DNA from: Candidatus Omnitrophota bacterium
GTDB lineage: Bacteria > Omnitrophota > Gorgyraeia > Gygaellales > Profunditerraquicolaceae
Length of the DNA stretch: 64,000 nt
Direction of reading: 5' to 3'
Assembly: GCA_043814315.1 (NCBI GenBank)
Contig: JBDRKE010000033.1
Span: forward strand, 10,422-74,421
Translations under genes and position numbers: made by a program
In this document: positions 4,542 to 23,168 of the stretch, one piece after another
Numbering within the stretch: position 1 is the stretch's first letter
Layout of the letters: every line of letters starts with the position of its first letter
The notes under the pieces: model-generated
Database searches by the model: none
What the model was told of the DNA's origin: nothing
The model's input: the letters and a program-made list of their open reading frames with translations, nothing else

Positions 4542-6194
4542 ATGCGTTCCGATAAGATTAAAAAAGGATTAGAGAGGGTTCCGCACCGCGCTCTTTTGCA
4601 TGCTACGGGTTTGAGCAGAAAAGATCTGAAAAGGCCCTTTATCGGGGTGGCAACCTCTTTTACGGACCTCATCCCCGGCCATATCGGTATGCGAGACTTA
4701 GAGCGCTTCATTGAGCGCGGGATTTGTTACGGCCAGGGCGTGCCGTTTTTCTTCGGCGTGCCCGGGATCTGCGACGGCATCGCCATGGGGCATTTAGGGA
4801 TGTGTTACCCGTTAGCCTTAAGAGAGATCGTGGCGGATACGATTGAGACGGTTTGTAATGCCCATAGCCTCGACGGGATCGTGTGCCTGACGAATTGCGA
4901 TAAGATCACGCCGGGCATGCTGATGGGTGTGGCACGCCTTAATATCCCCGCGATTATCTTGACGGCAGGCCCTATGATGTCTGGCCGTTTTCGACAGAAA
5001 AAGTTAGCTTTTGTGCATGACACCTATGAAGCCCTGGCCAGGGCAAAAAAAGGAGAAATATCTTCGCAAGAATTATCTTGTTTAGAAATGGAGGCTTGTC
5101 CCGGGGCAGGTTCCTGCCAGGGCCTCTACACGGCGAATACCATGGCCTGTTTAACCGAAACCTTAGGGATGTCTTTGCCGGGATGCGCAACGGCCTTAGC
5201 GGTTTCAGCTAAGAAGCGTAGAATCGCCCAAGCCAGCGGTGAGCGTATCGTGGAATTGGCGAAAAAAAATATTAAACCTTTGGATATCATCAATCAAAGG
5301 TCTTTGGAAAATGCCATTACCGTGGATATGGCCCTGGGCGGCTCAAGCAACACGGTTTTGCACCTTATGGCCATCGCCCATGAGACGGGAATAGAATTGG
5401 ATCTTAAAACATTTGATAAAATCAGCAAGCATACCCCGCACATCACAAACCTAGAACCCGCCGGGCCTCACTTTATGGAAGATTTAGAATATGCCGGAGG
5501 AATCCCTGCCGTGCTTAGAAGACTAAAGAGCAGATTAAACAACGCGATGACTCTTAGCGGTAAAAGAATATTTGATATCGCGGATGATGCCGTGATCTCT
5601 GACGAGGAAGTGATTCGTTCCTTTGAGCGCGCTTATCATAAGCAGGGCGGTATTGCCGTGTTGTTTGGGAATCTTGCGCCTGATGGAGCCGTGGTCAAGC
5701 AGGCGGCCGTCAGTCCCAAGATGATGCGATCCAGCGGCAAGGCTAAAGTTTTTAACCGCGAAGAAGAAGCCATGCAGGCGATTTTGAATAAGAAGATAAA
5801 AGCAGGGGATGTGGTTGTTATCCGCTACGAAGGCCCCAGCGGAGGCCCGGGCATGAGGGAAATGCTGGCTCCCACCTCTGCGATTGTGGGGATGGGCTTG
5901 GCTGAATCCGTGGCCCTGATTACCGACGGAAGGTTCTCCGGCGGCACCCAAGGCCCCTGCATCGGGCATATTTCCCCTGAGGCTTCCAGCCGCGGCCCCC
6001 TTGCGATTTTGAAGGACGGTGATATAATCAGCATAGATATACCGAATAGAAAAATAGAGGTTAAACTAAATAAAACCGAAATTGAAAAAAGATTTAAAAA
6101 TTGGAAACCTGTTTTGCCGAAGATTAAATCAGGGTATCTGGGAAGGTATTCTAAACTGGTCAGTTCGGCGGATAAAGGAGCCATTTTAGAATGA
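4542..6194 (+). CDS. ilvD: dihydroxy-acid dehydratase
   Basis: 550 aa with [19 protein letters not shown] and GRFSGGT motifs. The TGA stop overlaps the ilvB ATG. Confidence 0.95.
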
Positions 6195-11479: not shown

Positions 11480-12331
11480 ATGGATAAAAAGTCCATTACC
11501 ACGATTTATGGCGTTTTAGGTTATCCTGCCCAGCACAGCTTATCCCCTCTTATGCATAATGCGGCATTCCGAGCCCTGAAAATAAACGCGGAATATAGAA
11601 TCTTTGAGGTTAAGCCAGAGGATTTGGATCATTTTCTGGACAACATGGATGCCAACATTTACGGCTTGAATGTCACGATTCCCTATAAAGAGAAAATCTT
11701 GGAGTTTGTTTCTCTTGATGCCGAATCATTTTTCTTGAAGAAGATTGGGGCTGTGAACACGATCGTTAAGAAGGATAATGCCTGGATGGGTTTTAATACG
11801 GATATTCCCGGATTTTCAAAGCATTTAAAAGAGGTCCTTGATCCTTACGATAAGAAAGCCGCTGTTCTGGGAGCCGGAGGTGCGGCCAGGGCTGTTTGTT
11901 ATGCTTTGGTTAAATCCGGGGCAAAGGAAATAGCGATTTTCGATATCGAAAGAACCAAGTCGCAAGGGACCGCCGAAATGATAAAGAACCTATTTCCCCA
12001 TTTTCCCATATCTGCCGTAGGCAGCATCGAAGAATTAAATATAAAAAGCAGGGATTTGCTTATCAATGCGACTCCTGTAGGGATGAAAGAGTCCGATCCT
12101 TGTCTTGTGCCCCAAGAGTTGTTGAGTGAAAACCTTTTTGTGTATGATTTGATTTATAATCCTAAGCAAACGAAGTTATTAGCGCAAGCCCAAAAGGCAG
12201 GCGCCCATACGGAGAACGGCTTGGGGACGCTTCTGTGTCAGGGGGCGCTTTCCTTTGAGCATTTTACAGGCAAGTCTGCGCCTCTGGAAATCATGAAGCA
12301 GGCGCTTAGCCAAGGAGTAAAAAGCTTATGA
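11480..12331 (+). CDS. aroE: shikimate dehydrogenase
   Basis: YGVLGYPAQHSLSPLMHNAAF, NVTIPYK and GAGGAARA motifs. Confidence 0.9.
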   Translation: MDKKSITTIYGVLGYPAQHSLSPLMHNAAFRALKINAEYRIFEVKPEDLDHFLDNMDANIYGLNVTIPYKEKILEFVSLDAESFFLKKIGAVNTIVKKDNAWMGFNTDIPGFSKHLKEVLDPYDKKAAVLGAGGAARAVCYALVKSGAKEIAIFDIERTKSQGTAEMIKNLFPHFPISAVGSIEELNIKSRDLLINATPVGMKESDPCLVPQELLSENLFVYDLIYNPKQTKLLAQAQKAGAHTENGLGTLLCQGALSFEHFTGKSAPLEIMKQALSQGVKSL

Positions 12332-13140
12332 TGGAAAAATCAATCGTGTTTATTTTTGGCTCTATCGTCGGCAGTTTCCTGAATACCTGCATCCACCGGA
12401 TGCCGGGGGGCGAGTCCGTGGTCTGGCCGCGCTCTTATTGCCCCAAATGCAAGAAGAAGATACGCGGATACGATAATATCCCGATTGCAAGTTACATCAT
12501 CTTAAGGGGACGATGCCGTTTCTGCAAAGAAAGGATATCTTTGAGGTATTTTATCGTTGAGTTATTGACGGCGGCTATGTTCCTGGTTGTTTTTAACCAT
12601 TTTGGCCTAAGTTATGATTTTTTCTTCTATATGGTGTTGGTTTGCAGCCTGATAGTAGCGACATTCGTTGATATCGCGCACCGTATTATCCCCGATGAGA
12701 TTTCTGTCGGCGGCTTGATTCTCGGTTTTATCCTAAGTTCCGTTAGGGGGATCACCTTGGGCCCGTTCGCGTTCAACTACAGGCCGTTGTTGAATTCTTT
12801 TCTGGGCATTATCGCCGGCGGTGGGATTTTGTATCTGACGGGATTCGTCTTTGATCTTGTTTATTTCAAGCTCCTCAAAAAACCCCCCATCCAGGGAGAA
12901 ACGCAATCGATGGGCGGAGGGGACATAAAGCTGCTGGCGATGATCGGTGCCTTTTTAGGCTGGCAAAAGGCATTGCTGGTTTTCTTCCTTTCTCCGTTCC
13001 TGGGCGCCTGCGTCGGTATCATAAACCTTCTGGTTAAAAAAGACCACACCATACCCTACGGGCCTTTCTTGTCGTTATCGGCCATTCTCGTCCTATTCTG
13101 GGCAGATAAGATCCTGCAGTTGTTATTCTTTGTGCCGTGA
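12328..13140 (+). CDS. pilD: type IV prepilin peptidase (A24 family)
   Basis: CPKC...CRFC zinc motif, multiple TM helices, and GGGDIKLLA with the catalytic Asp. Confidence 0.88.
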   Translation: MMEKSIVFIFGSIVGSFLNTCIHRMPGGESVVWPRSYCPKCKKKIRGYDNIPIASYIILRGRCRFCKERISLRYFIVELLTAAMFLVVFNHFGLSYDFFFYMVLVCSLIVATFVDIAHRIIPDEISVGGLILGFILSSVRGITLGPFAFNYRPLLNSFLGIIAGGGILYLTGFVFDLVYFKLLKKPPIQGETQSMGGGDIKLLAMIGAFLGWQKALLVFFLSPFLGACVGIINLLVKKDHTIPYGPFLSLSAILVLFWADKILQLLFFVP

Positions 13141-13147
13141 GGACACC

Positions 13148-14956
13148 ATGGTAACCCGCCCTTCCTTAGATGATGATTTGCTGCGTACACTCTCCCATGC
13201 CAAATGGAAATGGATCGGTTCGCAAAAAAAGGCAGGGATACTGGTGCCTTTATTTTCTGTATACTCCAGGCAAAGTCAGGCAATCGGTGATTTAGCTGAT
13301 TTGAAGCTCTTGGTGGATTGGGCGCATTTAACGGCAAACTCCATCATTCAGCTTCTGCCCATGAATGACATGGGGCCTTTATTCTGTCCTTATGATTCCA
13401 ATAGTTCCTTTGCCCTGGAGCCCGCCACTATTTCACTTAAGGACTTTGATATCGATACCAAAGATTTAAAAAGAAACTTTCCTGCAGGCAAGAGCCACAT
13501 CCATTATTCTATCAAAGAAGAGAAAATGAGGTTGCTTTGGGAAGTTTACCTTCGGGAGAAAAAAAGCAGCCCGGCGTTTGAGAAGTTCCAGGAAGAAAAC
13601 GCCTATTGGCTTTCGGATTTCGCCCTCTACAAGGTGCTCAAAGAGGTGCATGCGGGAAGCCCTTGGTACGATTGGCCGCAACCCTTGAAAAATCGATGTG
13701 CCGCAGCCCTGGAGGAGTTTAAAAGAGAACATGCCGTAAAAGTTGCCTTTCACATGTGGGTGCAGTGGGTAGCTTACCGGCAGTTTAAAGAGATTAAGAG
13801 TTATGCGCACTCAAAAAAGGTGTTACTTAAGGGAGACCTTCCCATCTTAGTTTCCAGGGACAGCGCCGATGTCTGGCAGCACCCGGGATATTTTAAACTG
13901 GAGTTTTCCGCCGGAGCACCGCCGGATATGTATTGCGCTAAGGGCCAACGCTGGGGCATGCCGCCGAATAATTGGGAGAAGATTTCAGACGACAGTTTTC
14001 AATATGTAAAAGAAAAACTTAAGTTCGCCCAGCAATTCTATGACATTTTAAGGATAGACCATGTGGTGGGATTATTTCGCATATGGAGCATTCCTTATCA
14101 GGAACCCCAGGAAAATAAAGGCCTCAATGGTTTTTTTGACCCGAGGGAAGAGTCTGTCTGGAAAGAACATGGCAGAAGAATCCTTAAGGTCATTCTGGAC
14201 AGTACGTCCATGCTGTTATGCGCCGAGGATTTAGGGACTATACCCTCGGCCTGTCCGCAGGCCTTAAAAGAGTTTGGCATTCCCGGCAATGATGTGCAGC
14301 GCTGGGCCAAGGATTGGTGGCACAGGCATGATTTTTTAGATCCCCATGAGTACCGCGGTCTTTGCGTGGCGATGTTATCCACGCATGACACGACGAACTG
14401 GCCTGCCTGGTGGGAGAATGAGGCAGGCACGGTGGACGAGGAGCTTTTCATCAGGAAATGCTCTGACCATCGGCAGATAAACTTTAGCCACGTCAGGAAT
14501 AAATTATTTGATTCCTCTCGTTCCCATCATGGGAGGCTGCGCTGGCAGGAGAAGGTTGATTCAGTGGATAAACTGGTGGCGGTTCTAGGGAAGAGAAAAG
14601 AAGAGCTGGCGGATTTTATAGATTTGTACGAAAATACCTATCGCGAAAAAGAAAAACTGTGGAAGCATCTAAAGCTGCCCGGGCCCATGCGGGAGAAATC
14701 CGATGCCAAGATTGTTGCCCGGGCCTTGCGGATAAGCCTGGATTCCAGCGCCCTATTCTGTATCAATACGTTAGTGGATTGGCTGTATATTGCTGATGTG
14801 CATAAGGGGGACGCTTATCAAAACAGGATTAATACGCCTGGCACCATCAGCGACAAGAACTGGTCCCTCACGGTCCCGCTTTCCCTGGAAGAGCTCCTCA
14901 AGCATAAAATCAACAAGACCATCCGCAAGATGATTGAGTCTTCGGGAAGAGTATAA
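13148..14956 (+). CDS. malQ: 4-alpha-glucanotransferase (amylomaltase, GH77)
   Basis: LLPMND, SPYDSNSSFA-like, QRWGMPP, LRIDHVVG and EDLGTIP motifs. Start set at ATG 13148. Confidence 0.85.
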   Translation: MVTRPSLDDDLLRTLSHAKWKWIGSQKKAGILVPLFSVYSRQSQAIGDLADLKLLVDWAHLTANSIIQLLPMNDMGPLFCPYDSNSSFALEPATISLKDFDIDTKDLKRNFPAGKSHIHYSIKEEKMRLLWEVYLREKKSSPAFEKFQEENAYWLSDFALYKVLKEVHAGSPWYDWPQPLKNRCAAALEEFKREHAVKVAFHMWVQWVAYRQFKEIKSYAHSKKVLLKGDLPILVSRDSADVWQHPGYFKLEFSAGAPPDMYCAKGQRWGMPPNNWEKISDDSFQYVKEKLKFAQQFYDILRIDHVVGLFRIWSIPYQEPQENKGLNGFFDPREESVWKEHGRRILKVILDSTSMLLCAEDLGTIPSACPQALKEFGIPGNDVQRWAKDWWHRHDFLDPHEYRGLCVAMLSTHDTTNWPAWWENEAGTVDEELFIRKCSDHRQINFSHVRNKLFDSSRSHHGRLRWQEKVDSVDKLVAVLGKRKEELADFIDLYENTYREKEKLWKHLKLPGPMREKSDAKIVARALRISLDSSALFCINTLVDWLYIADVHKGDAYQNRINTPGTISDKNWSLTVPLSLEELLKHKINKTIRKMIESSGRV

Positions 14957-15090
14957 TGGGCTATATGTTTTTCCCTGCTTCGGGGTGTGTGCTCGTCAAA
15001 TTTTCCTCGCACACGCCCCTCACGGGGACTTCTTCAACTCCTCATCAATATATAGAAGTATAAGATAATATAAATAAATATAAAGAAGTA

Positions 15091-15119
15091 TTGACATCTT
15101 CCTGCTTTTGAGGTATACT
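15091..15119 (+). promoter_or_regulatory. sigma70-type promoter of the toxin-antitoxin pair
   Basis: TTGACA (15091-15096), 17-nt spacer, TATACT (15114-15119), about 25 nt upstream of the aaggagg SD and ATG 15145. Confidence 0.6.
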
Positions 15120-15144
15120 TGTAGCAAAAAGGAGGGAATATACC

Positions 15145-15429
15145 ATGATTCAAGAGGTTATGACCACAGAGCAGTTAGCCAAATATTTGCAATTGGATGA
15201 ACAGACCATTTACCGCAAGGCACGTGCGGGCCAGATTCCGGCAGTACATATCGGAAAGACTTTAAGGTTTAAGAAAGAAGTAATCGACGGCTGGCTGAGG
15301 ATTTCTTCTCTAAGGTGGACAGCCAAGAAAAGGCAGTCCTTAAGGGGCTGGGCAGAGGAATTTGCCAAGGAAAAGGGACTTAAGGAAGAAGATTTAGAGA
15401 AGGCAATCTCCAAGAGAAGATATCATTGA
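15145..15429 (+). CDS. excisionase-family HTH DNA-binding protein (putative antitoxin)
   Basis: MTTEQLAKYLQLDEQTIYRKARAGQIPAVHIGKTLRF is the excisionase/MerR-like HTH pattern. It overlaps the PIN gene by 4 nt. Confidence 0.75.
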   Translation: MIQEVMTTEQLAKYLQLDEQTIYRKARAGQIPAVHIGKTLRFKKEVIDGWLRISSLRWTAKKRQSLRGWAEEFAKEKGLKEEDLEKAISKRRYH

Positions 15430-15833
15430 TGATAAAAGTCATCCTTGATACTAATGTTCTAATCTCTAGTCTTTTCTGGAAAGGTTCTTCCCGCCATATC
15501 GTAGATTTAGCCATCGCCAGTAAGATCAAATCCGTAACTTCCCCTGAAATAATGGAAGAGGTGGAGGCGGTTTTATACGAAGACTTTCCGCAGGTGCCTT
15601 ATGAGAAAATTGAATGGATCATCAGAGACATTTTAAGTTATTCTCAGTTGATCATACCGCGCCGGGTTACGGTGAAAAGATTAAGGGATTCCAAGGACAC
15701 GAAAATCATTGCCTGTGCTTTAAACGCGAAAGCGGAATATATCGTTACAGGAGACAAAGACCTTCTTGCGTTGGAGAAATATGCAGAAGTAAGGATACTA
15801 ACCCCCAAAACCTTCTTAGATTTATTCAAATAG
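15426..15833 (+). CDS. PIN-domain toxin (putative ribonuclease)
   Basis: VILDTNVLISS at the N-terminus and YIVTGDKDLL near the C-terminus, the conserved acidic PIN residues. Confidence 0.78.
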   Translation: MMIKVILDTNVLISSLFWKGSSRHIVDLAIASKIKSVTSPEIMEEVEAVLYEDFPQVPYEKIEWIIRDILSYSQLIIPRRVTVKRLRDSKDTKIIACALNAKAEYIVTGDKDLLALEKYAEVRILTPKTFLDLFK

Positions 15834-16203
15834 ATTTACCAAGCCCTGCTTTCAGCAAAGGCCCCACTGCTTTAACTTAGCTCTTATCGGATTAAATGAA
15901 TACTCCTCGGGCTTTAGCCCGAGGTTTCCTAGACAGCCCCCGACTCGGCTAAATTCACCAAGAAATCTCGCTATAATTTTTGTGCTCGTCGGGGTAATCG
16001 TAACGCATTCATCCCCGGCTTGAAAACCGCGGATTTCTGCGTTACGATTAAAAGAAAAAGGGGCATCTGTTTGGACTGGCCTTTTTGGCTGAGAAACCGC
16101 TAAGGCTGGAGACGCCCCCTTAATTTACCCGCTACCCGATTATCGGTAAATTACGTCAAGATTATCGCAGATAATCTTGACGTTTCTTACGAGCCGGAGT
16201 AAA

Positions 16204-19200
16204 TTATCCCTTCCCTAAAAATACCTCCCTTAATTCCTGCGCGCTTCCCATGGATTCTAACACTACCAGGATGTCTCTGAGTGTGGCGTCAGTTGAGCAG
16301 CAGCTTTCTTCCTCTGACCTTAAGATATCCGATATGCAAAAAAGAATTTTATCCCTATCCTGCGTTATGCTCTCTTGAGCGCAGGATGTCTGTATATATT
16401 CCTTTATTCTCTCCGAAGAGGGAGTAATCCCTGAACTTGCCATCCTTGCAATCTGCCGCCACTCCTCATCAAGGTTAGTGCTAACCAAATTCCGAATAGC
16501 CGAAGAACTAATATTTACGCTTAAGTTAGTCATCGCCTGGGTGACGATGGGGAGAGAGCGGAAATCGATTCCTCCAAATCTTTGTTCCATCGCCGAGCTG
16601 GCGGTCTCTGGCTCAAGCGGCGAGCCGGAGACGGGATTATTTCCCAATGGAGGAGAATTTTTGATAGAACCGTCTCCTTTTTCTCTCGCAAGAACCTCCG
16701 TCATCCTCATAAAAAGCAGCATTTTTTCAAGCTGAGAGATTGCTACTTTAAGTTTCTCGCCCTCCAGAGGTTTGCTTTTAAAAATCTCATCAAGTTTATA
16801 TGTAAAAGTGCTGAAAAATACATTTACGGCAAAACGATAATCACTGCAGATACTCTCCGGAGTTCCACTCCTTTGAAATTCCTTTTCTGCTCTATCTAAA
16901 ACTTCCCCTGCCTTCATTCTTTTCATGGTATCCTGTAAGGCATTGACGGCATCCGCGTTCCAGGTTAGTGCCGCCTCGTAAATCTTGATTGCCTGCTGCC
17001 AGAATAAATATGAACCCCGGGTATGATAATAAATATCCCTCATGACCGGATTATCAGCGAAAGGAAGCCTATACAGCCTGGTTTCCTGACGCGAAAGAAG
17101 AGACGGCACATAATACAGGCGATAACTAATAGTTTTCCCGTCTTTTTGAGGGATTCCAATACCAGCCCACTCAAAGCCGTTCTCTAACCAATCCCTAAAA
17201 TCACTGTCACTAAATTCAAGCCCTCCGTCGGGATGATAATGAAAATAAAAAACCGGGGTTGCTTTTTTTTGTTCCACTTCTTTTTGTACGCGCATTTGAT
17301 ATCTCATTGTCCGTGCATGAGAATAATCCGTTATAATCAGATCCCAGTCGTTTTCTAAACTTAATCCTCCCCTTTCCGTTATTATGCGCTGAACAGCTAC
17401 GATATTTTCTGGCAAAGTTATGGGTGCCAGTTTTGAAATTATAGCTACAGCTTCCCCCCAGTCATATTGGTCAGAGAAAATAATAGAATCGCCTTCTTTG
17501 TCCGATATCAGTGTAAGCCTACCTTGAGAATTAACTTCTAAGCGTAAATCATATGACTCTGCTATAGCACGCAAAACCTTTTCTTTAAATCCTCCGATCA
17601 TATACCGTTCGACCAATTTTGTCTCTACATAAAGAATTTTATTTCTTCTGGGTAAAATCAGATCCACCAGTATATCCTTATTGCCCTCTTTTCTAACCAA
17701 GCCCACAGTCGATAATTCAGCATCTCTATATATATCCAAATAGCGCCGATGGAATTCATTCATTTGTTCTATAACTTGAGCTTCCGCATATAACAGCTCA
17801 TCTTCATATATTCCAAAAACCGAAATCAAAGGTCTTGCTGCTGTTGACCCCATTGCCGAAGAGGCTTTAACAGGCCCACTCTCCATCACCGAGCTGGCGG
17901 ACTCTGGCTCAAGCGGCGAGCCGGAGGTTTCCTTGGAAAAATCAGAACCGTCCCTATTTCCTGCAAGATCAATCTCGCTAGTTTCTACATTAACTTGAAC
18001 TGCTATCATTCTTGCCTTATTACGTTTGTCAAAAAGAGTTATCGTTATTGTAGGGGCATAAATCTCCTCTTTCGTGACAGGCTTGACGATGCCACTGTAA
18101 GACAGATAAATAAAATCATCAACGGAAATCCCAAAAAGATCAACAACTTCATGGCGCTTGCTTTCGCTCACCAAAACACCAAAAGCTTCATAAGCTTTTT
18201 TTTCATTTTCTACTGTATCCTTGTTTGGCTCCATGGCTTTAGCAGCTTTATAACTTGCCTCCTGAGCCAAATATTCGTCCATCAAAGGAGCAAGACCTGG
18301 ATTTTCTTTGTGATTTTTTATATGTGTTGCTTCATGAGCTATCATCCGGGCTAACCAAGCATCTCTAGCTTCTTGTGAGGGTAACGCCTCTGAATTATTA
18401 TAGTAGTCATACCCTACAACAATCAATTCCAAGTCCCCAAAAATCGCCATACCCCAGTCATCATTCATGCCCTTCAAAAAGAACAACACCGGCACAAAAG
18501 AAGTACTACTGGAAAGAATATTCTCCGCCATCAAGTAATCATAAGCTTGCCTGACCAGTGTTTCGTTCTGATTAGAAAGATTAATGGATGTCTTTAAATC
18601 CTCTTCAGAAACTGAACCGAGTCTGTTGCTTACCGCATCTTGAAGTTCTTTTAAAGAAAATTCCACGCCTTGTAAAATGCTATCCTTTTTATTTTCACCG
18701 CTTTTCTCATAACTACCTCCACAGCCTAAAAAACCGAATGTCGCCCCTACTGCCAAAGCCTTTATTAATGTCCGTGTCTGTTTAAGAAATTCTCGCCTTG
18801 AAAGATCTGACGATTCTCCCACCGCCGAAGAAGCTATGGACGTCTGTTCTTGGGGGCGCAACTCTACTTTATCTATTTCGCTCGACATGGTTGTAGCACC
18901 CACTTTAATTTCTATAACATTATGATTTAAACTCTGAGGAAGGCGACTTGCTATCGAAGACGATACAGCTCCTGTTTTAGGATTATGCACTACTTCACCT
19001 AATCCAGGCATACGTCCTAAGTCAAATATTTCTCCTCCACTAAAATAACTCCTTATTGTCTGACCATAGGGTGTATAAACTGGCTCCTTGATATTATATT
19101 CTCCATCTTTAAATGACTTCTGGTATTCTTTAAAATAGGGAGTCTTTGACCAGTTTTCTTTGGAGGTAAGGTTAGTTAAGTCTTTTCTATCTATGAGATG

Positions 19201-19539
19201 GGAATAAAGGCCATCTTTACTGTAGTAGCGTGCCTTAAACCACTGGGCCATAATCAAAGAATAATAAACCTGCCTTAAGGAAGCGTAGCGCTTGGAGGAG
19301 TTTACTTCTTTGGTAAGTTTGGGGATGATGAGCTCGCGGATGAGCTGTGTAGAATATTCGTTCAGGATTTTGGAGCGTTCATCCTTAAACTCATAGTTCC
19401 CTGCACCCTGCACCATCCACCCTGCACCCTGGCCACTCTCCTGTCCCCTCAAATAATCCTGCTCTAACATGACCTTTAAAGTGGCTTTATAAATATAGGC
19501 CGAGTCCGTCGTCTCGCGGATAATGATCTCTCCCGGCAC
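16204..19539 (-). CDS. giant modular secreted protein paralog, main fragment (downstream of in-frame TGA)
   Basis: The first ~170 aa and last ~125 aa align to the 38398-43587 product. Internally it has SRREFLK...FLGC, HEATH, HYHx7SxxD and two 44-nt SGSPLEPE junctions. Confidence 0.75.
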   Translation of the reverse strand: MPGEIIIRETTDSAYIYKATLKVMLEQDYLRGQESGQGAGWMVQGAGNYEFKDERSKILNEYSTQLIRELIIPKLTKEVNSSKRYASLRQVYYSLIMAQWFKARYYSKDGLYSHLIDRKDLTNLTSKENWSKTPYFKEYQKSFKDGEYNIKEPVYTPYGQTIRSYFSGGEIFDLGRMPGLGEVVHNPKTGAVSSSIASRLPQSLNHNVIEIKVGATTMSSEIDKVELRPQEQTSIASSAVGESSDLSRREFLKQTRTLIKALAVGATFGFLGCGGSYEKSGENKKDSILQGVEFSLKELQDAVSNRLGSVSEEDLKTSINLSNQNETLVRQAYDYLMAENILSSSTSFVPVLFFLKGMNDDWGMAIFGDLELIVVGYDYYNNSEALPSQEARDAWLARMIAHEATHIKNHKENPGLAPLMDEYLAQEASYKAAKAMEPNKDTVENEKKAYEAFGVLVSESKRHEVVDLFGISVDDFIYLSYSGIVKPVTKEEIYAPTITITLFDKRNKARMIAVQVNVETSEIDLAGNRDGSDFSKETSGSPLEPESASSVMESGPVKASSAMGSTAARPLISVFGIYEDELLYAEAQVIEQMNEFHRRYLDIYRDAELSTVGLVRKEGNKDILVDLILPRRNKILYVETKLVERYMIGGFKEKVLRAIAESYDLRLEVNSQGRLTLISDKEGDSIIFSDQYDWGEAVAIISKLAPITLPENIVAVQRIITERGGLSLENDWDLIITDYSHARTMRYQMRVQKEVEQKKATPVFYFHYHPDGGLEFSDSDFRDWLENGFEWAGIGIPQKDGKTISYRLYYVPSLLSRQETRLYRLPFADNPVMRDIYYHTRGSYLFWQQAIKIYEAALTWNADAVNALQDTMKRMKAGEVLDRAEKEFQRSGTPESICSDYRFAVNVFFSTFTYKLDEIFKSKPLEGEKLKVAISQLEKMLLFMRMTEVLAREKGDGSIKNSPPLGNNPVSGSPLEPETASSAMEQRFGGIDFRSLPIVTQAMTNLSVNISSSAIRNLVSTNLDEEWRQIARMASSGITPSSERIKEYIQTSCAQESITQDRDKILFCISDILRSEEESCCSTDATLRDILVVLESMGSAQELREVFLGKG

Positions 19540-19542
19540 AAT

Positions 19543-20088
19543 TCAGGGCCGGGTGAGAGTGGGAATGGTTATATTCTCATAGCCGTAGATTTCCTCTGCC
19601 TTTTTATAGAGTTTATTCCAGTATTCTTTTCCTTCTGCGGTTTCAGGTGAAGTGAACTTGGCGGTGTCTTTCTTGAGTTGCAGGTCGGTTTCCAGCATGA
19701 TCCTGCCGACATCCGTCCGTTCCAAGAGAGGGTCTATGATATTATCAGGAGAATCAGGCCGTAAGTTCACCCAGAAGAAGTCGTTGGGCAGAGTGAGGCC
19801 GATAAGGAAATAGTTTAGGAGCGTCTTGGTTGTATCCTCAATTTCCCGGGGCTGGGGGTTCTTGAGGCTGCCTTTGTCTAGAAAAAATTGGAAGCTGTTA
19901 TTGAGATTATCGTATTGAAGGTACCTTAAATGCAGGGGGCGAAAGGTGTCCGGAACTAAGGAATTATGCAGTGCTGCTAAGTGGCCGGCAATATTCAACT
20001 GGCCTGCAACCTGGGCAAAGCCGGATTGCTGGAAGATGAGCAGAAGGCACAATAATAGAGATAATAATTTTGTTATTTTCCCTGACAT
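19543..20088 (-). CDS. giant modular secreted protein paralog, N-terminal fragment (signal peptide + conserved domain), ends at TGA replacing conserved Trp
   Basis: 181 aa colinear with residues 1-187 of the 38398 product. ...LTRP-TGA-IVPGEIIIRE here corresponds to ...LTRPWIVPGEIIIRE in the paralog. Confidence 0.75.
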   Translation of the reverse strand: MSGKITKLLSLLLCLLLIFQQSGFAQVAGQLNIAGHLAALHNSLVPDTFRPLHLRYLQYDNLNNSFQFFLDKGSLKNPQPREIEDTTKTLLNYFLIGLTLPNDFFWVNLRPDSPDNIIDPLLERTDVGRIMLETDLQLKKDTAKFTSPETAEGKEYWNKLYKKAEEIYGYENITIPTLTRP

Positions 20089-20135
20089 TTATTGCGGTTT
20101 TAAGAGATTTTGGTTTCTCAGCCTTTATTAATAAT

Positions 20136-20164
20136 AGTATACACATTTAGGTAAGGGGATTCAA
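20136..20164 (-). promoter_or_regulatory. candidate sigma70 promoter for the minus-strand giant paralog
   Basis: On the minus strand: TTGAAT, 17-nt spacer, TATACT, about 45 nt upstream of ATG 20088. Confidence 0.4.
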
Positions 20165-20396
20165 TATAAAATAGGAAACCTAAGAAAGGGTTTTCTCTTA
20201 AGAAGACAAGGAAAGCTAACTACGCGAAATAACGCTTGGCGAAATATTATCTACGCCTTATACTTACTATTGAAGAATGACTGGCGGCTTAGAGTTTTAG
20301 ATTTTTATCCAGTCAAGATTATTCTTGTAACTCATTGTTTAGCAAGCTATTTCAAGACCCGATCTTGAAAATTTTAAAAAACGTTACCTTATTCAA

Positions 20397-20651
20397 TTAA
20401 AACCTAGGATTTTCTGGGGCAGGGGGCTGATCTTTGCCTTTCGTTTTTTCAAGTGTTGTTTGGAGTAGAAGCATGAATCTTTCTATGCCGATACGGTCCA
20501 TGGCAACTCTAGCAACTGTTTTAATTGGCCCTGGTTGGCCATGTTCGCTTGGTGGCTCTTGAAAGCGGAAGTCAAGAATAAAAGTTACGCCATTATTTGT
20601 ACCTACTCCGAAATTGTTACAACAAACCGGAATCATTTTTTCTTCTTCCAT
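20397..20651 (-). CDS. small conserved protein, DUF3467-like
   Basis: 84 aa; the aggagg SD precedes the ATG. The N-terminal segment ...NNFGVGTNNGVTFILDFRF... resembles DUF3467. This is from memory, not a search. Confidence 0.45.
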   Translation of the reverse strand: MEEEKMIPVCCNNFGVGTNNGVTFILDFRFQEPPSEHGQPGPIKTVARVAMDRIGIERFMLLLQTTLEKTKGKDQPPAPENPRF

Positions 20652-20731
20652 GATTCACCTCCTGACAAAAGTATACAGTACGAAAAAGACCTCTTGCGTC
20701 CCCGGAGCTTTGTGAAAGCGGCGGGGAAAAG

Positions 20732-20752
20732 CGACAGGTTCATTTAAACTAA
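20732..20752 (+). repeat. 21-bp direct repeat, left copy (cassette boundary)
   Basis: cgacaggttcatttaaactaa is identical to 22418-22438. Confidence 0.9.
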
Positions 20753-20835
20753 TCATTTGGCAAAGATTGCAGAAATTGAGCATTAAGACCTTTGTTCCGA
20801 GTCTATGTAGAGCACCAGGTTCTTCAAGAAGTTGA

Positions 20836-22407
20836 TTGATCAACGGTCCGATTTCTTATATAAAGATGAAAGAGGAATATAATAATCTTTTATGCAAAAT
20901 AGGTCATTCACATTTTTCTGAGAAGAGCATTATTTTGATTATTCTATTCTCAAGTTTTCTAGTCTATGCACCAATCCTCGATAATTATTTTTCAATGGAT
21001 GACTTTCTCTATCTTTCATTTGCCCGTGAAAATGGGCTAGCCTTAAAAAGCTTTTTTACACCTGAAAGATGCCATATTCCTGTTATCGCGAGATTTCTAT
21101 TCGTACTTCAATTCAAACTTTTTGGTACTAATCCTTTTCCTTATCATTTAGTTAGCGTATCTTTACATTTGTTGTCTATTTTTCTTTGTATTAATTTCTT
21201 TTCGAAGTTAACATCCAGAAAAGATATTGGATTGTTATCAGGTTTGCTTTTTGCTTTGTCCGCATCGCATTGTAATACAGTCATGTGGATTATACTACAA
21301 GCTCAGATAATGACTTCTGTGTGGTTTCTTATCTGTGGGATCTATTTTTTAAAATATATGGAGACAAAAAAGCTTTCATTTCTGTTCCTATCCTTTTTCT
21401 TTCATCTTCTTATGCTATTTTCATTTACGAGCGGCTTTAGCGTACCGTTGTTATTCATATCTTTATATTTTATTTTTTATAGTTTTCAAGAAAATAGGTA
21501 TCAAAAAATAAGAAAAGGTTTTTTTATAGTCATTCCTTTCATTGCTAACATTGTTTTATTTTTTGTGCTCAACACTATTCTTTTGTCTGGCCAAGATACT
21601 CTTATAGGAAATATGGGCGGTTTAAGCGGGTTTTTAGTGAATCTGCCTCAGGCTGTTTGGTACTTAATGGGAGGAATTTGGTATGGTTACGTCCGAACAT
21701 TTATGGGTATATTTGTTCGTAATGCGTGGGGGAATATTTTCGCATATATTATTGTTTTAAGTATATTCGTGCTATCATTTTCCGGGCTTAAAAAAAATAA
21801 AAAATTAATTTTTTGGCTTATAGCTGGTTTGGTATTAACGTATTTTCCGTCTGCGATCCCAAGGAAATCGTGTTATCGTGATTATTTTTGGTTTGTGACG
21901 CGTTTCCGTTATCGGTATTTACCTTGTGTTTTTGCTTCGGCTTTAGTATCAACTGTTTTTTTTAATTTACGTCTACCTAAGAAAAGGTTGCTTAAGAATA
22001 TTTTTTGCCTCTTATTATTTATCGCTTCAGGGTTTGTGATCACTCAAAATTATTATGCCATAAGAAAACGTGAATCATATATGCATAATCAATCACGTAA
22101 CTTAGAAATTTTTTTAAAAAAATTCTTGGATAATTTAAATGGTTTTCTTTTAAGTAAAGACACTGTTTATATTATCAATCAAGCCTTTTTTGACGAAAAT
22201 AGTCGATCATATAGGTTTTGTGGTTATGCTTATGCAGGTTGGTACGTGCACCCAAGTCAGGTTTGCAGTATGTATCTTTCTGATGACAATTTTAGTCGAA
22301 TAATATTTTTAGAGGAGGATAATTGGCAAAAGTTTATACACGAATCTGTTACAGTGTATCGAATTCAGCCAATAACAGGAAATCTAATTCCTGCAGTCAA
22401 ACACTAA
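20836..22407 (+). CDS. polytopic membrane protein, GT-C/ArnT-PMT-like glycosyltransferase candidate
   Basis: 523 aa with more than 10 predicted hydrophobic helices. It has a YFSMDDF loop after TM1 as in GT39/GT83-type enzymes, and markedly AT-rich codons. Confidence 0.45.
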   Translation: MINGPISYIKMKEEYNNLLCKIGHSHFSEKSIILIILFSSFLVYAPILDNYFSMDDFLYLSFARENGLALKSFFTPERCHIPVIARFLFVLQFKLFGTNPFPYHLVSVSLHLLSIFLCINFFSKLTSRKDIGLLSGLLFALSASHCNTVMWIILQAQIMTSVWFLICGIYFLKYMETKKLSFLFLSFFFHLLMLFSFTSGFSVPLLFISLYFIFYSFQENRYQKIRKGFFIVIPFIANIVLFFVLNTILLSGQDTLIGNMGGLSGFLVNLPQAVWYLMGGIWYGYVRTFMGIFVRNAWGNIFAYIIVLSIFVLSFSGLKKNKKLIFWLIAGLVLTYFPSAIPRKSCYRDYFWFVTRFRYRYLPCVFASALVSTVFFNLRLPKKRLLKNIFCLLLFIASGFVITQNYYAIRKRESYMHNQSRNLEIFLKKFLDNLNGFLLSKDTVYIINQAFFDENSRSYRFCGYAYAGWYVHPSQVCSMYLSDDNFSRIIFLEEDNWQKFIHESVTVYRIQPITGNLIPAVKH

Positions 22408-22417
22408 AATAAAAAAA

Positions 22418-22438
22418 CGACAGGTTCATTTAAACTAA
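22418..22438 (+). repeat. 21-bp direct repeat, right copy (cassette boundary)
   Basis: cgacaggttcatttaaactaa, 10 nt upstream of the ttcA ATG. Confidence 0.9.
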
Positions 22439-22448
22439 GAGAAATTAT

Positions 22449-23168
22449 ATGGCATTATTACAGGGCACGGAGTTTTACATATCGAAGCGCGTCGGACGGG
22501 CGATGGTGGATTATGAGATGCTTTCCGAAGGGGACAAAATCGCGGTGGCAGTCTCCGGCGGCAAGGACAGCCTGACCCTGCTTAAAGTTTTAGCTGACCG
22601 CCAGAGGTTTGTGCCTATCAAATACGAACTCCTGGCTGTCCATATTGATTTAGGGTATCCGCGCTCCCTGGCCAAGACCCTGGAAAAATACTTCAAAAAA
22701 ATCAAAGTCAAATATCATATTGAAAAAGTGGATACCCTCAGGAAGACGAAGCCCAAAGACATCAGTTGCTTCTGGTGTTCCTGGAACAGGCGAAAGGCCT
22801 TGTTTGAGACGGCAAACAGATTTGGCTGCACGAAAGTGGCCTTTGGCCACCATAAGGACGATATCGTGGAGACCCTCCTGCTGAATTTATTCTTTCACGG
22901 CGAGTTTTCCGCCATGTCCCCTAAGCAGCCCTTGTTTGAGGGTAAGATCGTTATCATCAGGCCCCTGGCCTATGTAGAGGAAGATAGGATCAGGAAATTT
23001 GCCAGGGAGGCCGGCTTTCCCCACGAGAAATGCTCCTGCCCCAACTCCCTGACTTCTAACCGCACGAAGATGGCTCGCATCATTAAGGAATTGGAAAAAG
23101 TCTGCCCCGAGATAAAGACCAACATTTTCAAAAGCGCCAAAAGGGTCAAGCAGGATTATTTGCTTTAA
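22449..23168 (+). CDS. ttcA: tRNA 2-thiocytidine biosynthesis protein TtcA-family PP-loop ATPase
   Basis: SGGKDS PP-loop, CFWCSWNRR and CSCP cysteine motifs, about 240 aa. Confidence 0.8.
   Translation: MALLQGTEFYISKRVGRAMVDYEMLSEGDKIAVAVSGGKDSLTLLKVLADRQRFVPIKYELLAVHIDLGYPRSLAKTLEKYFKKIKVKYHIEKVDTLRKTKPKDISCFWCSWNRRKALFETANRFGCTKVAFGHHKDDIVETLLLNLFFHGEFSAMSPKQPLFEGKIVIIRPLAYVEEDRIRKFAREAGFPHEKCSCPNSLTSNRTKMARIIKELEKVCPEIKTNIFKSAKRVKQDYLL

Follow-up and report, generated by a model that had tools for sequence, protein, structure and literature searches.

The 64-kb window analysed here (the whole stretch of 64,000 nucleotides) comes from a metagenome-assembled genome (MAG) contig of a Candidatus Omnitrophota bacterium and carries, directly in front of the tRNA 2-thiocytidine synthetase gene ttcA, a single AT-rich gene for a predicted membrane glycosyltransferase of the GT-C fold, bracketed by two perfect 21-bp direct repeats. 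When comparing this locus with its relatives, we found a 1665-bp one-gene insertion 10 nt upstream of ttcA that duplicated 21 bp of its target (26 bp if an imperfect extension is counted). The insertion is real and well documented, and the case is a fairly ordinary one; for its mechanism we tentatively infer the integration of a circular cassette at a short sequence shared with the chromosome. The contig, of 87,113 bp, was seen once, and a search for exact contig records of the window TtcA or the GT-C protein returned no match.

The 21-mer CGACAGGTTCATTTAAACTAA occurs exactly twice in the window, both times on the forward strand and with a spacing of 1686 bp (Table 1), as an earlier reading made from the letters alone (hereafter the sequence-only reading) had described, and 100 dinucleotide shuffles gave 0 matches. 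With one mismatch allowed, the pair grows to 26 nt (25 of 26 identical; AAAA[G/A]CGACAGGTTCATTTAAACTAA, 20727-20752 and 22413-22438); by our own estimate, a match of four of these five flanking positions has a probability of about 0.05. No longer decayed homology was found past the repeat, such as a ttcA remnant of the kind present at one related locus (L003, described below): Smith-Waterman scores equalled those of shuffled controls, and no ttcA remnant follows the left copy. The right copy spans -31 to -11 relative to the ttcA ATG at 22449, confirming the 10-nt distance already reported. No inverted partner of the repeat exists in the window and neither copy takes part in a hairpin; the DNA fold of 22290-22450 is not significant and leaves the repeat unpaired.

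When 241 million metagenome records were searched for exact matches to the 21-mer, two contigs were retrieved, L081 and L082, which represent one relative (TtcA 84.5% identical, 77-80% nucleotide identity); the 21-mer was absent from IMG/VR. Each contig has one copy, 10 nt before ttcA, and 28 nt of the window (20726-20753) are identical to this single-copy site. On its 5' side, the L082 copy is preceded by sequence homologous to the flank left of the window's left copy, and on its 3' side it is followed by sequence homologous to the flank right of the window's right copy, with both contigs colinear with the window from 22440 onward. When 20753-22438 is removed, the window is colinear with L082 at 83.5% identity across the junction. 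The sequence-only reading had proposed that taking out the insert plus one repeat would restore a normal ttcA upstream region, and had named a one-copy empty site in a related genome as the comparison to make; L081 and L082 supply that site. The 28-nt identity was also considered as a sign of selection on the 21-mer, a suggestion that is not supported: identical stretches of this length or longer occur at least 7 times in 4.6 kb of aligned L082 and window sequence.

No homologue of the GT-C gene was found at 80 loci of TtcA relatives (GTDB species representatives) or at 10 further loci, giving about 90 related loci, and neither the three uncharacterised genes to its left (84, 181 and 1111 aa) nor the HTH_17 and PIN genes beyond them had a tblastn match at any related locus. 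The pair ttcA-rmuC and everything 3' of rmuC is syntenic in relatives. The gene adjoining ttcA on its 5' side is the equivalent of malQ or, if malQ is absent, of the prepilin peptidase gene pilD (12328-13140 in the window), and the closest TtcA relatives (82-83%) all have the order leuA-aroE-pilD-malQ-[190-850 nt]-ttcA-rmuC. Thus the junction between ttcA and a putative DUF3467 gene, which the sequence-only reading had named for comparison with related genomes, is not the ancestral one, and that gene is part of a larger island of 7.5 kb that no relative has.

The insert is compositionally foreign DNA. Its GC content in 300-nt windows is 0.28-0.36, against about 0.46-0.49 in the rest of the window, and the GC content at third codon positions (GC3) of its gene is 0.28, compared with 0.54±0.05 (minimum 0.40) for the 53 other open reading frames (ORFs) of the window (z = -5.2). 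Since two window membrane proteins of equal hydrophobic fraction have GC3 values of 0.62 and 0.53, this AT-richness, noted before by eye, is not an amino-acid effect. One ORF (20836-22407) fills the repeat-bounded interval, in agreement with the earlier description; its alternative TTG start at 20836 would give 523 aa. The insert has no terminal inverted repeats, those found being internal and weak (I6 at 75%). GT-C gene and ttcA have the same orientation, and no terminator-like site was found at 22300-22450, before ttcA; given this shared orientation and the lack of a terminator between them, ttcA, which retains the 31 nt nearest to it, probably shares a transcript with the GT-C gene. A candidate role of the 21-mer as carrier of the ttcA promoter, with TAAACT as -10 box, is unsupported: in a sigma-70 promoter scan, sites were no commoner than in shuffles and none fell within the repeat.

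Table 1. Coordinates of the insertion, its surroundings, the related palindromic elements and the hot-spot cargo (positions are those of the window or of the named related locus)
Feature	Sequence	Position	Strand	Remarks
malQ (4-alpha-glucanotransferase, GH77)	window	13130-14956	+	conserved left flank; PF02446, E = 3.8e-116
HTH_17 antitoxin-like gene	window	15145-15429	+	Pfam HTH_17
PIN toxin gene	window	15426-15833	+	Pfam PIN; GC3 0.46
1111-aa ORF	window	16204-19539	-	GC3 0.40; no Pfam match
181-aa ORF	window	19543-20088	-	no Pfam match
84-aa ORF	window	20397-20651	-	no Pfam match even at E <= 10
Element A remnant (last ~66 nt of 3' end)	window	20685-20752	+	nhmmer 20685-20750, E = 6.4e-7, profile positions 172-241; its end is the left repeat copy
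Left 21-bp direct repeat	window	20732-20752	+	joined to ancestral upstream sequence
Inserted DNA, 1665 bp	window	20753-22417	+	113-nt 5' leader, one ORF, 10 nt (AATAAAAAAA) after the stop
GT-C-fold membrane glycosyltransferase gene (predicted)	window	20866-22407	+	NCBI ATG start, 513 aa, ABIG31_05260, annotated 'hypothetical protein'
Right 21-bp direct repeat	window	22418-22438	+	ends 10 nt before the ttcA start codon
ttcA (tRNA 2-thiocytidine synthetase)	window	22449-23168	+	conserved right flank, followed by rmuC; NF007972, E = 5.8e-66; PP-loop PF01171
Element A copy	L082	2095-2338	-	
Element A copy	L001	5749-5989	+	
Element A copy	L083	4581-4808		inverted
Hot-spot cargo	window			HTH_17 and PIN pair, three uncharacterised genes, GT-C gene
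Hot-spot cargo	L001	4736-5710		AT-rich Schlafen/AlbA_2 gene
Hot-spot cargo	L003			TIM-barrel gene and HTH_17/Fic pair
Hot-spot cargo	L082	3075-4220		SIR2_2 protein and others
Hot-spot cargo	L089	3714-4229		ORF6N

The repeat as arm of a palindromic element

A point missed by the sequence-only reading is that a conserved, structured palindromic element has the 21-mer as its terminal arm. This element, here called A, is a G+C-rich non-coding sequence of about 235 nt directly upstream of ttcA in L082 and L001, closed by the long inverted repeat AAATGAACCTGTC…GACAGGTTCATTT, of which the 21-mer forms the 3' arm (in L082, L001 and L083). Its predicted fold has -126 kcal/mol and z = -11.4 in L082 and z = -8.7 in L001, and four sequences show compensatory changes in 15 of 59 predicted pairs. 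At loci L083 to L086 it lies between malQ and ttcA in the opposite orientation. A profile (nhmmer) search of about 0.95 Mb of related sequence found element A at the malQ-ttcA locus only, where the window retains its last ~66 nt (20685-20750) together with 25 nt of the right copy.

Another palindromic element, B (176 nt, z = -6.1; L083 4814-4989, L087 4813-4985, L089 3490-3663), has opposite orientations at the same place in L083 and L087, although the flanks of the two are 90% identical, and a further copy occupies another intergenic site, ttcA-rmuC, in L009 (6732-6885); copies and flip suggest a mobile or invertible repeat family. Neither structured element matched an Rfam family, at gathering thresholds or at E <= 1. 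Both are orientation-variable elements resembling miniature inverted-repeat transposable elements (MITEs) and repetitive extragenic palindrome doublets (REPINs), with which they share long terminal inverted repeats, a strong hairpin fold and occurrence in either orientation (element A), presence or absence between 90%-identical genomes, and a sister element at a second intergenic site (element B). Unlike such repeats, element A sits at one locus in the ~0.95 Mb, has a branched interior with compensatory changes, and has neither a clear target-site duplication nor a known linked transposase. An RNA, an invertible segment and a MITE are the candidates for its nature. Since two different elements flip, the inversions may equally well come from a general process acting on inverted repeats as from a dedicated recombinase.

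Within 120 nt upstream of ttcA, L007 has a short palindrome (GGGACGCTCTTTTTGCTAA…TTAGCAAAAAGAGCGTCCC) and L005 a repeated GGGTGTCCC/GGGACACCC. Hairpin elements seem to be a general feature of the ttcA upstream intergenic region.

Recurrent insertion between malQ and ttcA

The gap between malQ or pilD and ttcA measures 15-100 nt in distant relatives and 190-420 nt, made up of palindromic elements, in close ones, whereas in seven lineages (the window, L001, L003, L009, L048, L082 and L089) it is longer than 800 nt and holds unrelated cargo, which Table 1 lists for the window, L001, L003, L082 and L089. The malQ-ttcA interval is therefore a recurrent insertion hot spot, a landing pad for accessory and defence-type genes such as toxin-antitoxin, SIR2-like, Schlafen/AlbA_2, ORF6N and GT-C genes. 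In the window, the repeat-bounded 1.7 kb form the right-hand part of a lineage-specific island of 7.5 kb (14957-22448), and a search for repeats bounding the whole island gave only one 10-mer, which is at chance level. The cargo of L001, L082 and L089 looks defence-like, and none of it has flanking direct repeats.

Repeats of at least 14 nt that have a copy no more than 150 nt from the ttcA start were found in the window and L003 only. At the latter locus, a HTH_17/Fic toxin-antitoxin module (insert 5139-6000, between 5100-5138 and 6001-6039) stands between an 11-codon ttcA remnant and an intact ttcA, and is bounded by a repeat of 25 nt exact and 32 nt imperfect, with residues 2-3 of TtcA altered. 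Thus at least two hot-spot insertions left duplications of 21-32 bp with ttcA intact.

Origin of the insertion

With a probability of roughly 45%, we favour an integration of the Campbell type, in which a circular, non-autonomous cassette joined the chromosome at a short sequence common to both. The circle would have carried a copy of the same 21-26-nt sequence, namely the terminal arm of the palindromic, MITE-like element that the lineage carries at this site, and a single crossover between it and the chromosomal copy would have left attL/attR-like direct repeats; the enzyme would have acted in trans, either a site-specific recombinase or RecA on minimal homology. The junction of the circle would read …AATAAAAAAA + 21-mer + TCATTTGG…. 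This model is preferred because it yields direct repeats without special ends on the insert, because the near-match outside the 21-mer and the imperfect repeat of L003 suggest two pre-existing similar sites, and because ttcA 5' regions are proven att sites elsewhere. That unrelated DNA could have the 21-mer is explained by its being part of a repeat element.

Several observations weigh against such an integration. Pfam and NCBIfam scans of the ORFs of the 7.5-kb island, 14957-22448, found no integrase, recombinase or transposase (HTH_17 and PIN were the only matches), so the element would have to be non-autonomous; the absence of integrase, transposase and terminal inverted repeats in or next to the insert had already been remarked. 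There is no third copy of the 21-mer in the window with up to 3 mismatches on either strand, and the cassette was not found elsewhere, free or integrated, in the protein, metagenome-record, IMG/VR and phage-record searches. The relative that provides the empty site is a different species and not a strain of the same population. Most other hot-spot insertions have no flanking repeats, and the repeat of L003 lies at +8 to +32 of the ttcA ATG against -31 to -11 in the window, some 40 nt apart, so one defined att core was not reused.

A target-site duplication, in which captured or transposed DNA entered a double-strand cut with a 21-nt stagger (made by a transposase, a casposase or Cas1-like integrase, or by two nearby nicks in a fragile palindrome) that was then filled in, is a less probable competitor. 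It would account for a perfect 21-bp duplicate with sharp edges and no significant homology beyond, needs no att-type recombinase (none being nearby in the island scans), and finds a suitable site at the base of a strong hairpin-forming element in relatives (z = -11.4), long palindromes being break-prone. However, in the window the palindrome has already lost most of its length and no hairpin forms at either copy of the repeat, the insert has no transposase, its sole ORF being the GT-C enzyme, and no terminal inverted repeats, and 21 bp exceeds the 2-15 bp typical of target-site duplications by transposases and casposons. The four-of-five match outside the 21-mer is likewise not expected from fill-in, and two pre-existing similar sites fit it better. 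From the sequence-only reading, an insertion bounded by a duplicated target stands, and attL/attR-type integration, a long target-site duplication and other mechanisms are all candidates for its origin.

Where a hot spot lacks integrases, recombination in the core genes on either side is the common explanation, and malQ-ttcA is such a hot spot, with many unrelated cargos that mostly lack repeats. The locus may have been transferred from a related donor that already had the cassette beside ttcA, by homologous recombination in ttcA and an illegitimate join on the left; the base upstream of the right copy (AAAAA-C) is that of the L083/L086 version of the arm and not of the L082 version. Yet homology-facilitated illegitimate recombination replaces or deletes recipient DNA and, partly by inference, normally makes no duplication; a transfer of this kind predicts replacement, the duplications of window and L003 (21-32 bp) would each require an illegitimate join a few tens of nt inside the homology, and no donor with such an arrangement was found in the protein, GTDB-locus and metagenome 21-mer searches. 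We therefore regard it as a minor and improbable rival. An assembly artefact, that is, a graph loop at a shared 21-mer that spliced in another molecule or strain, is more improbable still. Twenty-one is the smallest default k of MEGAHIT and SPAdes, so the repeat length is a common k-mer size, and the composition of the insert is sharply unlike that of a contig seen once in a MAG. But final contigs are built at much larger k, the match does not stop at k but runs to 26 nt with one mismatch, and the gene is complete, runs in the direction of ttcA and lies close up against it; moreover, the foreign sequence would need the 21-mer at both ends, which is impossible by chance and implies a real circular or integrated molecule anyway.

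Two further explanations are largely excluded. If the gene were ancestral and lost in relatives by recombination between the 21-bp direct repeats, a single copy would remain, as in L081 and L082, and the 'empty site' would be a deletion scar. Such a history would have to be reconciled with a GC3 of 0.28, 5 sd below the other genes, with a best homologue that is 41% identical, and with absence of the gene from the ~90 related loci, among them the loci where malQ or pilD stands right next to ttcA; it would also leave the origin of the repeat to be explained, and we consider this history very unlikely. Slightly less likely again is a gene cassette of the integron type, inserted by IntI at attC/attI, an option that the sequence-only reading had raised. 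The insert does resemble integron cassettes in its single promoter-proximal ORF, co-oriented with its neighbour, its very short spacers and its foreign composition; in relatives the repeat is part of an imperfect palindromic hairpin, and in L003 a toxin-antitoxin 'cassette' occupies the same place. What is missing in the window is an inverted partner, a hairpin with either copy or at the cassette end (and so anything like attC), a GTTRRRY core at the boundaries, an attI site, an array (there is one repeat pair) and, within the island, intI, while the palindrome of relatives, at ~235 nt with internal branches, far exceeds the 57-141 nt of attC. The integron-like option fails on these grounds.

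Among known kinds, the insertion comes closest to cargo-only islets or cis-mobilizable elements (CIMEs) bounded by att-like repeats; it is neither an integron cassette nor a transposon. Like such islets and CIMEs, it has direct repeats around foreign cargo, a one-copy empty site in a relative, no recombinase gene of its own and a position by a conserved housekeeping gene. It differs in its small size (1.7 kb and one gene), in that no cognate integrase or parent integrative and conjugative or mobilizable element was identified, and in the placement of its repeat, which is in an intergenic palindromic element and not in a tRNA or gene end.

A precedent for ttcA as a landing site comes from Rac and rac-like prophages, which integrate into the 5' end of ttcA in E. 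coli, Shigella and Salmonella; in E. coli, the imperfect Rac attL/attR change four N-terminal residues of the protein (PMC4632033). In both Rac and the window, the ttcA 5' region receives the insertion and short repeats keep ttcA intact, and the ttcA 5' remnant and altered N-terminus of L003 are comparable to ttcC'/ttcA. Unlike Rac, the window repeat lies upstream of the start codon and not in the coding region, and the window has no ttcA remnant, phage genes, integrase or excisionase; the phyla are unrelated and the sites have no sequence similarity. By analogy, we regard Rac-type integration at ttcA as a functional parallel.

A bolder reading is doubtful: this Omnitrophota clade would have an uncharacterised system of site-specific recombination that uses the 21-26-nt sequence, with inverted copies around a structured segment of ~200 nt that flips (element A occurs in both orientations) and direct copies around recombinase-less cassettes that are moved into the ttcA promoter-proximal region. 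If that were true, the locus would be an integron-like capture platform with another site architecture and enzyme. More generally, a dedicated recombinase acting in trans would make this a new cassette-capture system; otherwise it is an ordinary genomic islet. The window offers, at base-pair resolution, a clean case of recent gene acquisition in Omnitrophota; this phylum is uncultivated, and its mobile genetic elements are, to our knowledge, almost undescribed. The sequence that was duplicated comes from a family of structured palindromes whose orientation varies.

The GT-C gene product and other genes of the island

The inserted gene product had been read as a 'GT-C/ArnT-like' polytopic membrane protein, a description that structure upholds and Pfam does not. 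Neither Pfam nor NCBIfam gave a match even at E <= 10, a sequence search of the PDB with the GT-C profile gave none, and a word-indexed protein search found the protein itself and four weak matches. That apparent orphan status was overturned by an exhaustive HMMER scan of 1.84 billion representatives, which yielded 5175 proteins at the cut-off of E <= 1e-3, the best with 41% identity and E = 5e-101. In an alignment of 44 homologues, D46 (in an FSMDDF motif of the first loop), F129 and Y351 are invariant, and D46 may be the catalytic residue. Two of these 44 match PMT_2 and one matches STT3, and a few have tetratricopeptide (TPR) tails. An AlphaFold2 model built from the homologue alignment (pLDDT 91.3, pTM 0.92) was compared with the PDB by Foldseek, which returned PglB, STT3, AglB, ArnT, Pmt1/2/4 and DPY19 (E = 4e-6 to 5e-2, TM ~0.46-0.51); nearly all of the top 24 are GT-C enzymes. 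Judged by this model, the protein is a GT-C-fold membrane glycosyltransferase from a family without a curated model, and its predicted enzyme type is that of the polyprenyl-phosphate-sugar glycosyltransferases.

Named homologues come from MAGs of Aminicenantes and Thermodesulfobacteriota. The gene of the closest homologue sits between a GT2 gene and a GT87 gene, and that of homologue P0006 adjoins a GT2 gene. The protein probably modifies an envelope glycan or protein, and a foreign envelope glycosyltransferase would plausibly alter the cell surface, which is relevant to phage or host recognition in small, possibly host-associated cells. It shares with GtrC-type serotype-converting enzymes and accessory GT-C enzymes (ArnT, PglB, PMT/TMTC) the GT-C fold with an acidic motif in the first external loop, and an AT-rich, horizontally acquired gene; the GT2 neighbour of P0006 recalls gtrB-gtrC pairs. 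Unlike them, it falls at the sequence level outside every Pfam and NCBIfam GT-C family, it has no adjoining GT2 or flippase partner in the window, and it lacks phage context, with no homologue found by tblastn in 50,697 phage records.

The remaining genes of the island are listed in Table 1. The 84-, 181- and 1111-aa ORFs form a minus-strand operon. For the 84-aa gene, the label 'DUF3467' given by the sequence-only reading is unverified and not refuted: Pfam gives it no support, and its NNFGVGTNNGVTFILDF resembles the family by eye. In the 1111-aa ORF, we noted by eye an HExxH motif (HEATH), a JAMM-like motif (HYHPDGGLEFSDSD) and an internal twin-arginine-like signal (SRREFLK…LGC), and this ORF may consist of two fused or mis-started genes. 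It also contains a 45-nt direct repeat that is 96% identical (16586-16630 and 17882-17926) and codes twice for the peptide SGSPLEPE(S/T)ASS(V/A)ME. Three intergenic hairpins lie in the island or at its edge, one at 14960-15040, just after malQ (GGGGTGTGTGC…GCACACGCCCC); the other two are the inverted repeats at 15995-16050 and 16146-16190, with arms of 27 nt and 21 nt.

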